This document shows positions 12,557 to 14,868 of a stretch of 30,429 bases of DNA, one piece after another. The notes beneath the pieces are model-generated. The model was not told where the DNA came from, searched no databases, and saw nothing but the letters and a program-made list of their open reading frames with translations. The position numbers and the translations under genes were made by a program. The stretch is from positions 1-30,429 of the forward strand of contig JAFZUD010000020.1 in NCBI GenBank assembly GCA_017618495.1, read 5' to 3'. Each line of letters begins with the position of its first letter. Position 1 is the first letter of the stretch. Origin of the DNA: Bacilli bacterium (GTDB lineage Bacteria > Bacillota_I > Bacilli_A > RFN20 > CAG-826).

Positions 12557-12568
12557 CCTTAACTCCAG

Positions 12569-12602
12569 AAGGCCGGCCTAATTTGACCGGCTTTTTCTTT
12601 TT
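12569..12602 (+). terminator. Intrinsic terminator after the peptidase gene
   Basis: AAGGCCGG/CCGGCTTT stem followed by a T-rich tract. Confidence 0.7.
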
Positions 12603-12611
12603 GTCTAGAAT
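12583..12611 (+). promoter_or_regulatory. Sigma-A promoter TTGACC-N17-TAGAAT for the radical SAM pair
   Basis: -35 at 12583-12588, -10 at 12606-12611, ATG 11 nt later, no SD sequence. Confidence 0.7.
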
Positions 12612-12622
12612 AGGCACGTCTT

Positions 12623-13525
12623 ATGAAATTCTCGTCTTTCATGAAATTTGCTGGTTTCGGAATCAGCACAATTCTCTTTCGTAGGAAGAAACCTATTTTA
12701 GGAACGGTCATCGTCACCGATAAGTGCAACCTCCACTGCAAACACTGTTCCGTCAATAACATCACCGCGGTCATCCACCCATATGAGCAGATCAAAGGTG
12801 AGATGAAGCAGCTCTATGACATGGGCGTGCGCATCCTCTTTTTCTGTGGAGGCGAGACCTTCATGTGGAAGGACGGAGACAAGACCCTTAGAGACCTCGT
12901 CATCGAGGCGAAAAAGATGGGCTTCCTCATCGTTAACATAGTCACAAACGGTACCTGGCCAATCGATTTGCCAGAGGCGGACTTAATTTTATTAAGTCTT
13001 GATGGCGACAAAGTCCACCACAACATCATCAGAGGCGAGACTTACGACGCCATCTTCGAGAACATCTCCAAGGCCACCTCAGACAACATTTGTTTCTATA
13101 TGGCCGTCAATCAGATCAACAAGGATTGCATCCGTGACGTCTGCGAGAAAGCCCGCGACACCAAGAACGTCAGAGCGGTCTCTTTCAACTTCCACACCCC
13201 ATACCCAGACACCAAAGAACTCAAACTCACCAAAGAAGATAAAGCCAAATGCTGCGAGACCATAAAGCAGATGATGAAGGAAGGCTGCCCTGTCTTTAAC
13301 CTCAAGAGCGCATTCCCATATATCATCGAGAACAAATTCCCGACCCCATGCCACCAATGCGTCGTCATGGAGAACGGAAAGCTTTCCGTCTGCGGGCGTT
13401 GCATCGATGTCCCGGGCCTTTGTGATGAATGCGGCTACTTCTTCGTCGCCGAATATACCCTTCTCTTCAGGGGCAACTTGAAGATCATCTTCGAGATGCT
13501 TAAGACTTACCTGAAATACATCTAA
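12623..13525 (+). CDS. Radical SAM protein with Cys-rich C-terminal (SPASM/twitch-like) region; function unknown
   Basis: CNLHCKHC (CxxxCxxC), GGE motif, VTNGT, SLDG. C-terminal CHQC..CGRC..CDEC. Confidence 0.88.
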   Translation: MKFSSFMKFAGFGISTILFRRKKPILGTVIVTDKCNLHCKHCSVNNITAVIHPYEQIKGEMKQLYDMGVRILFFCGGETFMWKDGDKTLRDLVIEAKKMGFLIVNIVTNGTWPIDLPEADLILLSLDGDKVHHNIIRGETYDAIFENISKATSDNICFYMAVNQINKDCIRDVCEKARDTKNVRAVSFNFHTPYPDTKELKLTKEDKAKCCETIKQMMKEGCPVFNLKSAFPYIIENKFPTPCHQCVVMENGKLSVCGRCIDVPGLCDECGYFFVAEYTLLFRGNLKIIFEMLKTYLKYI

Positions 13526-13526
13526 A

Positions 13527-14780
13527 ATGAGCTTCCTTACATCACTTGCAAGATCCTGGCTCACAAGGTCACTCAAACCATTCACTTTCAAGAGCGATTA
13601 CGACCAGGTTCTCCCATATGAAAACCTAGACAATCTAGGTCTTTATGTTCACCTTCCTTTTTGCAAAAACATCTGCAATTTCTGTCCGTATTGCAAAAAA
13701 CTCTACTCAGAAGAGGAGAGCAATAGGTATATTGACGCCCTCATAAAAGAGATTCATTTAGTTGGTTCTCAAAGCAAAGAAAAGAAGAAGGTCACTAGCC
13801 TCTATTTCGGAGGCGGAACCCCTGCTTTGTCCGCGCCTAGAATCCACGAGATCATTGAGGCCATAAACGAGCACTTCATCATCACCGAAGGAATCGGTTT
13901 GGAGCTTCATCCGGATAACGTTAACAAAGAAACCCTTCAGACACTTAAAGATGCCGGGGTCACCAAGATCTCAATCGGCATCCAATCCTTCCGTTCCAAA
14001 TACCAGTCCATCTTAGGAAGAAAGACTGTGGACACCAAAGCCATGAAAGAGGCTTTAGAGGCCGTTCCTTTTGAAACGGTATCCATGGACTTCATCTTCG
14101 CTTTGCCTTCACAAACCTATGAAGACCTTGAAGCGGATGTCGATGAGGCTTTCGAACTTGGCGCCAACCACGTAGCCATTTATCCGTTCATCGACTTCAC
14201 CTTCACCTCTAGCAAAGTCAAAGCCCTCCCAAAGAAAGAGAAGAGAGAACTTCTTGATGCCATAACAAAGCATTGTCAGGAGAAAGGCTATCCTCGCAGC
14301 ACCATTTGGACCTTCTCAAGCAAGCCTGAGGCCAAATACTCGTCTATGACGAGAGAGACCTTCTTAGGCTTTGGTTGTTCTGCCACCACCCTTCTCAAAG
14401 ACCAGTTCAAGATCAACACGTTCGATGTTGATTCCTACATCAAGAGAATCGGAGAAGGGAAACTCCCAACTTCGTTGACAATCAGATTTAAGAAGAGACA
14501 AAGAATGGTCTATTGGCTCTTCTGGACCGCTTATAGCACAAGCGTGGATTCCAAAGACTTCGAGAAGTTCTTCGGCGTCTCCCTTAAGAAGAAGTATGGG
14601 TTTGAGTTATGGCTCGCTAAAAAGATTGGTTATATCACCGAGAAGGATGGTGTTTACACCATGACACTCAAGGGAGCGTTCTACTACCACTACTTCGAGA
14701 ACTTCTACACCCTCTCCTACATCGATAAGATGTGGGGCATTATGAGGAAAGAAGCTTTCCCGAAACAGATCAAACTATAG
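13527..14780 (+). CDS. HemN-like (class C) radical SAM protein; function unknown
   Basis: LYVHLPFCKNICNFCPYC, LYFGGGTP, KISIGIQSF, DFIFALP and FLGFGCSA. Starts 1 nt after the upstream stop. Confidence 0.85.
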   Translation: MSFLTSLARSWLTRSLKPFTFKSDYDQVLPYENLDNLGLYVHLPFCKNICNFCPYCKKLYSEEESNRYIDALIKEIHLVGSQSKEKKKVTSLYFGGGTPALSAPRIHEIIEAINEHFIITEGIGLELHPDNVNKETLQTLKDAGVTKISIGIQSFRSKYQSILGRKTVDTKAMKEALEAVPFETVSMDFIFALPSQTYEDLEADVDEAFELGANHVAIYPFIDFTFTSSKVKALPKKEKRELLDAITKHCQEKGYPRSTIWTFSSKPEAKYSSMTRETFLGFGCSATTLLKDQFKINTFDVDSYIKRIGEGKLPTSLTIRFKKRQRMVYWLFWTAYSTSVDSKDFEKFFGVSLKKKYGFELWLAKKIGYITEKDGVYTMTLKGAFYYHYFENFYTLSYIDKMWGIMRKEAFPKQIKL

Positions 14781-14782
14781 AA

Positions 14783-14813
14783 AAAAGAGGCGCGGAGTAA
14801 GGACGCCTCTTTT
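14783..14813. terminator. Bidirectional intrinsic terminator between the radical SAM pair and hsp20
   Basis: AAAAGAGGCG / CGCCTCTTTT perfect arms between convergent genes. Confidence 0.85.
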
Positions 14814-14868
14814 CCTTTATGGTCGACGAGAACTGTATGTAACAGCGTGAAAGGAGTAGCCGCTGTTT

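Follow-up and report, generated by a model that had tools for sequence, protein, structure and literature searches.

A horizontally acquired two-gene radical SAM cassette in which a six-cysteine enzyme depends one-sidedly on a HemN-like neighbour

Several described radical SAM systems resemble parts of the two-gene locus studied here. The oxygen-independent coproporphyrinogen III oxidase HemN (1olt) and the class C methylases NocN/NosN (9p2u) have a CxxxCxxC motif, a GGGTP motif, a conserved Glu, a GxQSF motif and residues that stack against and bind a second SAM molecule, while the ChuW/HutW enzymes, anaerobic methyltransferases that degrade heme, are HemN-like proteins that stand alone in gut bacteria. 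Cfr-type radical SAM methylases connect nucleic-acid modification with antimicrobial tolerance. The tetraether lipid synthase GDGT-MAS/Tes, which couples lipids through C-C bonds, combines a radical SAM core with a Cys-rich, metal-binding C-terminal part in a protein of about 500 aa, and two-gene cassettes that are so far uncharacterised couple a radical SAM protein to a MenA-like prenyltransferase. HemN-like enzymes also methylate menaquinone (PMC10114718). Lastly, Mss, the bacterial membrane-spanning lipid synthase, is a radical SAM enzyme from anaerobes that joins fatty-acid tails by itself, with homologues reported in rumen Butyrivibrio and membership defined by at least 30% identity and an E-value of at most 1e-50 to Tmari_0825 or WP_129545148.1 (Sahonero-Canavesi 2022, PMC13159169).

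Our window is a stretch of 30,429 nucleotides from a Bacilli bacterium, and a sequence-only reading of it had picked out two adjacent radical SAM genes, here called A and B (Table 1), as a self-contained unit. The unit is real, with both open reading frames in place and the TAA stop of A separated by one base from the ATG of B. The reading also described the unit as bounded by its own promoter and terminator. A promoter-like site lies 11 nt upstream of the A start codon, which would make the transcript near-leaderless, and there is no clear Shine-Dalgarno sequence; since sites of this kind are no more numerous in this region than chance predicts, it is a candidate only. A hairpin lies on either side of the unit. 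The upstream one more likely ends transcription of the M24 peptidase gene that precedes A, and the downstream one is common to B and the convergent hsp20 gene. A riboswitch or leader upstream of A was considered and rejected, with no Rfam element found there in the window or at 11 loci. Many cassette transcripts would begin with a GTGTACAC palindrome, but it was found in 13 of 147 upstream regions and is lineage-specific and too short as a search query, so that inferring a regulon through it was abandoned.

Table 1. Coordinates of the cassette, its genes and its borders in the window
Feature	Position	Strand	Description
Gene A	12623-13525	+	300-aa radical SAM protein; amphipathic N-terminal helix, CxxxCxxC, three C-terminal CxxC pairs
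Gene B	13527-14780	+	417-aa HemN-fold radical SAM protein; residues for two SAM molecules
Inserted cassette	12557..14781	+	hairpin/promoter region, A and B; absent from same-genus genome G112
Upstream hairpin and U-run	12567..12596	+	-14.2 kcal/mol, z -3.5; left edge of the insertion
Promoter-like site (candidate), TTGACC-17-TAGAAT	12583..12611	+	10/12 consensus matches
Bidirectional terminator, resident	14783..14813	.	-15.1 and -16.6 kcal/mol, both strands

The cassette reached this host by horizontal transfer and is not a trait of the host lineage. This becomes apparent when comparing it to the empty site in G112 (L007), where the M24 peptidase stop codon is followed by about 20 nt and then by the terminator found here after B; the upstream hairpin is missing there. 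Against that genome the pair is a precise insertion of 2.2 kb. In three other genomes of the genus the pair is present with a DNA identity of about 96%, and a search of 100 further genomes from the host family did not find A. Genes for A with at least 80% identity occur in more than 590 species genomes. By the labels given to the metagenome-assembled genomes, these hosts belong to Bacillota, Verrucomicrobiota/Kiritimatiellia, Lentisphaeria, Spirochaetota and Actinomycetota, and the habitat of all labelled A loci is gut or rumen. Between contigs with different phylum labels, DNA similarity is limited to the interval from about 126 nt before A to about 150 nt after B, with 87-90% identity inside and unrelated flanks. 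No repeats flank the cassette at the host locus. In one cassette lineage a partly decayed NikA/MobC relaxosome gene lies just downstream. A plasmid or phage as the carrier was rejected, as a tblastn search with A found no match among either, and so was a compositional island, the GC content of the cassette being that of the host. A mis-binned contig can likewise be set aside, as the composition is typical of the genome and the whole region is common to three same-genus genomes. Cultured hosts of the cassette are Lachnospiraceae bacterium AC2028 and Hominicoprocola fusiformis CLA-AA-H269.

The pairing of A with B is far above chance. B lies directly 3' of A in all 78 testable genome loci and in 74 of 80 metagenome loci. 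Four of the six exceptions end at or within about 125 nt past A, one has about 300 nt in which B was not detected, and the last has an acyltransferase in place of B. Where the genes are arranged differently (B then A, or convergent), the pairing still holds, with identity falling as low as 45-53% in A and 30-40% in B. The flanks of 80 loci yielded no third conserved gene, and an XRE regulator occurs only in the B-then-A clade, at 3 of 5 loci. The sequence-only reading had expected the two genes to co-occur across genomes, which is borne out for A but not for B. Full-length B-family genes were found in 24 of 400 Bacillota_A genomes, with A in only 10 of those 24, and in 13 of the 24 B-bearing Clostridia genomes the B-family gene (about 50% identity) stands alone. 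Neighbours are unrelated at twelve solo loci, a search of five solo-B genomes at E ≤ 1e-8 did not find A, and in the tree the solo B genes lie scattered among the paired ones. The dependency is thus one-sided: A's clade always adjoins a HemN-like gene and a B-family gene can occur without A. Since B occurs alone, we regard it as the autonomous core and not as half of an obligate pair.

The HemN fold extends over the full length of B, which the reading had called HemN-like (E. coli HemN, 1olt, TM 0.75 over 414 columns), and NocN is its second-best PDB sequence match. In Pfam the sole match is Radical_SAM. Residues Y40, Y93, K148, R165 and D188 of B correspond to Y34, Y96, R153, R171 and D196 of NocN, where they bind the second SAM (PMC12871812), and HemN Y56 is a further counterpart. 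Three of these positions (Y40, Y93, R165) do not vary in the orthologue alignment, D188 reaches at least 90% conservation, and position 148 is Lys or Arg in most sequences, with Met or Ala in two distant ones. These retained residues suggest that B is a class C-like dual-SAM enzyme. It shares with HemN and NocN/NosN the motifs listed at the outset, but identity is only 21% and neither a heme pathway nor a natural-product cluster surrounds it. B has conserved motifs of its own (R.WLTRS.KPF.F, WTF..YSSMTR and a C-terminal aromatic block ending in YIDKMW), the first of which accompanies an amphipathic helix at residues 3-13 (model pLDDT 89.8), and the fourth Cys of HemN is lost in distant B orthologues.

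Protein A likewise matches only Radical_SAM in Pfam, with the motif at C35/C39/C42. The six extra C-terminal cysteines to which attention had been drawn form three CxxC pairs (C243/246, C257/260 and C267/270) and are 96-100% conserved in the clade. Its amphipathic helix (residues 3-19; AF2 pLDDT 94.6) is conserved, so that the amphipathic N-termini reported for both proteins are genuine. GDGT-MAS (7tol), which like A has a Cys-rich part after the core, is the best PDB match of A, with E 3e-5 in the sequence comparison and E 1e-10 in the fold comparison. This likeness is weak: identity to Tes is 22%, the Tes/GDGT-MAS model (NF045702) gives 34.4 bits against a cut-off of 450 over residues 23-188 only, A is much the shorter protein, and isoprenoid ether lipids are absent from its bacterial host. 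The peptide maturases SkfB, SuiB and CteB and viperin match the fold of A about equally well. The top NCBIfam match is the PTO1314 family (TIGR03961) at 41.2 bits, far from its cut-off of 306, and the HpnH C-terminal domain DUF3463 was not found in A at E ≤ 0.01, nor in the T. maritima control. The match to prokaryotic viperins (pVip) is partial and confined to the core, with 37 bits in PADLOC and 33.7 bits against an NCBIfam cut-off of 180; a role in anti-phage defence was rejected because PADLOC gave partial viperin-core matches only. By description A differs from Mss, which acts alone, in that it never occurs without a HemN-like neighbour. All the tested NCBIfam cut-offs were missed by both proteins, and so, for the families tested, the contention that neither falls in a characterised cluster has held.

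The reading that we prefer, tentatively and in the knowledge that it may well prove wrong, is that B is a class C-like enzyme using two SAMs and working autonomously, with A as an accessory second radical step, both acting on a hydrophobic and probably membrane-resident substrate, likeliest an alkyl or acyl chain. One SAM in B would yield the 5'-deoxyadenosyl radical and the other would be the methylene-radical or C1 donor, as in class C, with a molecule already present in the cell as the substrate. A would then provide an optional second step on the product of B or on the same molecule, in which hydrogen would be abstracted and one or more Cys-bound auxiliary metal sites would accept an electron, giving a C-C or C=C bond. 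The likeliest candidate for this molecule is a membrane lipid acquired from the surroundings and modified on its alkyl or acyl chain; it would be neither a peptide nor a menaquinone or heme made by the cell itself. The presence and absence of the two genes across genomes suggests the order of B first and A second, and the short amphipathic N-terminal helices suggest that both proteins associate with the membrane. In favour of this reading are the full-length HemN fold and second-SAM residues of B, the place of GDGT-MAS as the nearest solved relative of A, the membrane prenyltransferases and membrane acyltransferase coupled to relatives of A, and a host genome in which UbiA, polyprenyl synthase, cytochrome bd and a FabF-type ketoacyl synthase were not found. 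No lipid gene or transporter ties the pair to a substrate.

An unlikely alternative, though the best of those that we considered, is tetrapyrrole handling, where B would open, modify or deliver heme in the manner of ChuW/HutW or HemW and A would act on the same porphyrin like NirJ or AhbD, yielding iron or a modified heme. Heme is abundant in guts, all the labelled loci come from gut or rumen, and iron acquisition, if mobile, would easily spread. The family scores lean the same way, with ChuW/HutW (TIGR04107, 156.5 bits), HemW (TIGR00539, 150.5) and HemN (TIGR00538, 143.3) as the runners-up for B and weak matches of A to AhbC, NirJ, NirJ1 and NirJ2 (25-30 bits). However, these are far under the cut-offs, which are 400, 205.4 and 324.95 for B and 500-650 for A (AhbC/AhbD/NirJ). 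The same is true of HemZ (TIGR03994, 112.4 bits against 321.4) and of the best match of B, the PRK08629 coproporphyrinogen oxidase family (NF006385, 193 bits against 355), of which no true member was found among 250 Bacillota genomes. Where HemW would have HNxxYW after the radical SAM core, which we take to be its motif, the aligned B orthologues read YSSMTR..F, and the host already has a separate HemW-like paralogue on another contig (C75, 29% identity). Unlike at ChuW/HutW loci, no chuX/chuY or heme-uptake genes lie near B, and more than 150 flanks show no recurring heme transporter, iron regulator or gene of the ChuX/ChuY type. The earlier statement that the locus has no precursor peptide, transporter or heme gene applies equally to the host locus and to more than 150 others, where no substrate gene was found either. 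Additionally, the partners of A's sister clade are MenA-like prenyltransferases and not heme genes.

Those partners point to quinone or isoprenoid tailoring, which we consider quite improbable for this pair: B would resemble the C-methylases MenK, MqnK and MenK2, for which there is the menaquinone precedent given above, and A would tailor the same quinone scavenged from neighbours or diet. In the tree of A, clade I (support 97/93) contains every HemN-partnered member but one, L207, whose long branch falls in clade II. In 7 loci a member of clade II, the sister of A's clade, is coupled directly to a MenA-like prenyltransferase of the membrane, and three of these partners exceed the TIGR00751 cut-off. 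The radical SAM protein in these cassettes belongs to the same family of about 300 aa as A, but its partner is not HemN-like and only two of A's six C-terminal Cys are common to both. The MenA link is one of clade II and not of A's own clade. Other clade II relatives are located in arginine operons, so that the family context is not uniformly lipid-related; a clade II relative matches DUF3463 at 33 bits, and a membrane acyltransferase is the coupled partner of one member of clade I. The host genome (92% complete) also argues against a quinone made by the host, which would be expected with the MenK-type enzymes, since UbiA (PF01040), polyprenyl synthase (PF00348) and cytochrome bd were not found in it; nor was a FabF-type ketoacyl synthase. 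UbiA is missing in three of five other cassette hosts too, and quinone-using genes do not recur nearby.

Modification of a peptide or protein encoded elsewhere is more doubtful still. Here A would be a maturase of the twitch/SPASM type, as its fold matches to SkfB, SuiB, CteB and anSME could suggest, and B a class C methylase of the thiopeptide type (TbtI/NosN-like), in keeping with the place of NocN among its PDB matches. Yet the ORF list of the locus leaves no space for a precursor in or beside the cassette, the N-terminal RRE or PqqD-like domain is lacking because the radical SAM motif of A begins at residue 35, protease and exporter are absent, and flanks are unrelated across more than 150 loci. 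Methylation of nucleic acid, for example of rRNA or tRNA to give antimicrobial tolerance, would account for the horizontal spread among gut bacteria and has the Cfr-type precedent, the candidate promoter and the adjacent mobilisation debris on its side, but it is very improbable given that there is no RNA-binding domain, no RlmN/Cfr or MiaB similarity beyond the common radical SAM core, no plasmid or phage record with A and no co-located resistance gene.

A more specific form of our preferred reading, with B and A acting on a hydrophobic substrate, is oxygen-independent tailoring of lipid tails, in which B would add a SAM-derived C1 unit to a membrane lipid chain and A would cross-link or desaturate it through the six-Cys module. 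We offer this as speculation that is rather unlikely to be right in full. If it were true, gut anaerobes, including fatty-acid auxotrophs like the 1.1-Mb host, would be able to remodel scavenged saturated lipids, and the product would be an undescribed class of bacterial membrane lipid, with A and B as the first pair of radical SAM enzymes that work on acyl chains.

New in this analysis are the one-sided dependency, the sister clade with its MenA-like or arginine-operon context, and the host without UbiA, polyprenyl synthase or a FabF-type ketoacyl synthase. Thousands of gut and rumen proteins that are labelled 'radical SAM protein' or, wrongly, 'coproporphyrinogen oxidase' are members of the A/B module, and fusions among the distant matches add no further domain. 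Given that a 2.4-kb unit with its own candidate promoter moves between labelled phyla, it presumably confers a portable advantage in the anoxic gut. The system is also experimentally tractable, as B can be studied alone with A as an add-on, cultured hosts exist, and solo-B and paired strains occur naturally; the switch of partner in the A family, between HemN-like enzymes and membrane prenyltransferases, is a further aid. Once solved, the substrate would provide a new reaction for class C radical SAM chemistry and would allow a widespread misannotation to be corrected.

The A-B pair, a radical SAM gene (A) followed by a gene for a HemN-fold radical SAM protein (B), is a horizontally acquired cassette. 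The host assembly, 1.11 Mb in size, is 92% complete, and in composition the window's contig is like the rest of it. A search of 100 other genomes from the host's family did not find A, and a DNA search of relatives returned three same-genus genomes that carry the entire region at about 96% identity. In the relative G112 the flanks are 86% identical, yet exactly the cassette is missing, and a resident terminator lies no more than about 20 nt after the stop of the M24 peptidase gene. At 80% identity or more, A occurs in more than 590 species genomes, all from gut or rumen samples, labelled as Bacilli, Lachnospiraceae, Oscillospiraceae, Erysipelotrichales, Treponema, Kiritimatiellia/Verrucomicrobia, Lentisphaeria and Coriobacteriia-type Actinomycetota. 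When contigs labelled as different phyla are compared, their DNA is similar (87-90%) only in the stretch that starts about 126 nt ahead of A and ends about 150 nt past B, and the flanks are unrelated. A MAG's phylum label could be wrong singly; independent MAGs of the same group show the same context, and cultured isolates carry the pair. In one lineage B is followed by a NikA/MobC relaxosome gene, internally deleted in other copies (loci L021, L031 and L073), which looks like a remnant of a mobilisable element. Searches of plasmid and phage records returned no match to A.

The slot between the M24 peptidase and hsp20 genes is variable within the genus, being empty or holding either an FprA-like flavoprotein gene or the radical SAM cassette. 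The flavoprotein, called from sequence as metallo-beta-lactamase plus flavodoxin-like, fills the slot in a more distant species (G106), and the same gene probably occupies it in G108 and G110 as well, a call made only on the size of the gap.

The sequence-only reading placed both genes correctly; the TAA stop of A is followed by one base and then the ATG of B, and Radical_SAM is the only Pfam match of each. It had the pair bounded by its own promoter and terminator; a hairpin does follow B but is common to the hsp20 gene, and the promoter-like site belongs to a class of matches no more numerous than chance. If that site is used the A transcript would be nearly leaderless, since there is no clear Shine-Dalgarno before A. 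No Rfam element was found in or before the unit. Many other cassettes have a common promoter (TTGAAA, 17 nt, TATAAT; upstream of A in L021, L026-L029, L031, L034, L040, L042, L050, L053, L061 and L073) with the palindrome GTGTACAC, which may be an operator, at about +1, and then about 50 nt of conserved 5' UTR that includes a GGAG Shine-Dalgarno. The window's copy is without the palindrome.

Co-occurrence of the two genes was borne out, B following A in all 78 testable genome loci (gaps 3-105 nt) and in 74 of 80 metagenome loci, with no recurring third gene found in the flanks. The order A then B is kept at 57-70% identity for A and 49-50% for B, the order is B then A at 48-54% and 31-34%, and B is upstream or convergent at 45-48% and 30-40%. 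Upstream of the B-then-A module, three of five loci have an XRE-family HTH regulator of about 160 aa, its C-terminal half without an assigned domain, which may be translationally coupled to the module. One half of the maximum-likelihood tree of the A family, clade I (support 97/93), holds every HemN-partnered member except L207, which is HemN-partnered too and has a long branch within clade II. In clade I each of the six C-terminal Cys is 96-100% conserved; in clade II only two are conserved.

Clade I A was not seen without a HemN-like neighbour. A B profile search found full-length B-family genes (>320 bits) in 24 of 400 Bacillota_A genomes, and only 10 of those 24 have A. Stand-alone B-family genes (L224-L235) turned up in 13 of the 400 Clostridia genomes sampled; most are 46-54% identical to B, and three are at 34-38%. 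None of twelve solo-B loci has an A-family neighbour, their contexts are unrelated, and searches for A in five solo-B genomes at E <= 1e-8 returned nothing. Solo and paired genes are interleaved in the B tree (at least four changes needed), one solo gene being sister to a paired gene with strong support. These solo genes in genomes without A suggest that B can work without it.

Neither protein reaches any curated NCBIfam family cut-off tested. The alternative of most weight is tetrapyrrole handling. The B model (pLDDT 89.8) aligns with HemN (1olt) from end to end (TM 0.75, 414 columns); the fourth cysteine of HemN is present in the window's B, but is not conserved in distant B orthologues, and all the Hem-type scores lie below cut-off. 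Another contig of the host carries a further HemN-like gene, which is probably HemW. Binding of two SAM molecules is a hallmark of HemN-like and class C enzymes. Since the residues binding the second SAM, mapped through the NocN structure paper (PMC12871812) and alignments, are kept in B, it most likely binds two. A review of HemN-like enzymes leaves several clades without assigned function (PMC10114718).

In seven loci (Bacteroidales, spore-formers and others) a clade II gene is directly coupled to one for a MenA-like UbiA prenyltransferase, which lies upstream or downstream. Some of these prenyltransferases are extended at the N-terminus by about 130 aa, and three exceed the menA cut-off. 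One clade I member is paired with a membrane acyltransferase. These membrane-enzyme partners suggest lipophilic substrates. A large Clostridia subclade lies within an arginine operon (argJ, radical SAM, PNPOx-like flavoprotein, argB) in a dozen of 400 sampled genomes (L196-L206, L208, L211); its radical SAM protein has a weak DUF3463/HpnH-type match and about 30% identity to A. This context gives no pointer to lipophilic substrates, and we know of no explanation for the clade. Tailoring of scavenged quinones is the alternative second in weight. UbiA, trans-polyprenyl synthase, cytochrome bd and FabF-type ketoacyl synthase were not found in the host genome, UppS is present, and UbiA is missing in three of five other cassette carriers. 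Self-made menaquinone is therefore ruled out as substrate.

The closest fold to the A model (pLDDT 94.6) is GDGT-MAS/Tes, also its top PDB sequence match, followed by SkfB, SuiB, CteB and viperins at about equal likeness. Protein or peptide modification comes third in weight, and the locus has no room for a precursor peptide gene. An anti-phage viperin was rejected, the PADLOC matches being partial and covering the viperin core only. Nucleic-acid methylation ranks last.

Features of the cassette, its relatives and its profile and residue comparisons
Feature	Position	Detail
Cassette	12557-14781	
M24 peptidase-hsp20 slot	12557-14868	
M24 peptidase gene		upstream of A
Upstream hairpin + U-run	12567-12596	-14.2 kcal/mol, z -3.5
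Promoter-like site	ends 11 nt before A's ATG	TTGACC-17-TAGAAT; candidate
A	12623-13525	300 aa; CxxxCxxC (residues 35-42), three C-terminal CxxC pairs
B	13527-14780	417 aa; CxxxCxxC then PYC; GGGTP; GxQSF
Downstream hairpin	14783-14813	both strands fold well; also terminates convergent hsp20 gene
G112 empty slot	L007 480-620	
G106 slot with FprA-like gene	L009 2646-3860	
NikA/MobC gene	L021 8183-8530	
XRE-type regulators	L216 10509-10982 (-); L217 6251-6805; L219 6376-6864	
MenA-like/clade II loci	L097 5970-7894; L098 6003-7894; L102 5012-6900; L099 5015-7239; L101 6001-8073; L103 6001-8239; L194 1495-3681	
Arginine operon (example)	L196 211-3830	
B vs PRK08629		193 bits, NCBIfam cut-off 355
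B vs ChuW/HutW		156 bits, NCBIfam cut-off 400
B vs HemW		150 bits, NCBIfam cut-off 205
B vs STM4012		150 bits, NCBIfam cut-off 380
B vs HemN		143 bits, NCBIfam cut-off 325
B vs HemZ		112 bits, NCBIfam cut-off 321
A vs PTO1314		41 bits (A's top NCBIfam score), cut-off 306
A vs Tes		34 bits, NCBIfam cut-off 450
A vs AhbC and NirJ-type		25-30 bits, NCBIfam cut-offs 500-650
Second-SAM residue	B Y40	NocN Y34, HemN Y56
Second-SAM residue	B Y93	NocN Y96
Second-SAM residue	B K148	NocN R153
Second-SAM residue	B R165	NocN R171
Second-SAM residue	B D188	NocN D196

We favour a reading in which B would be an autonomous dual-SAM enzyme and A would add a second, accessory radical step; the substrate would probably be a hydrophobic small molecule. 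Such a pair is not among the lipid-modifying radical SAM enzymes listed in a 2026 review (PMC13459092). Judged from its gene content the host may be auxotrophic for fatty acids, and we therefore infer that scavenged lipids are a plausible substrate. Fatty acids, and also an isoprenoid primer, may have to reach the organism from outside.
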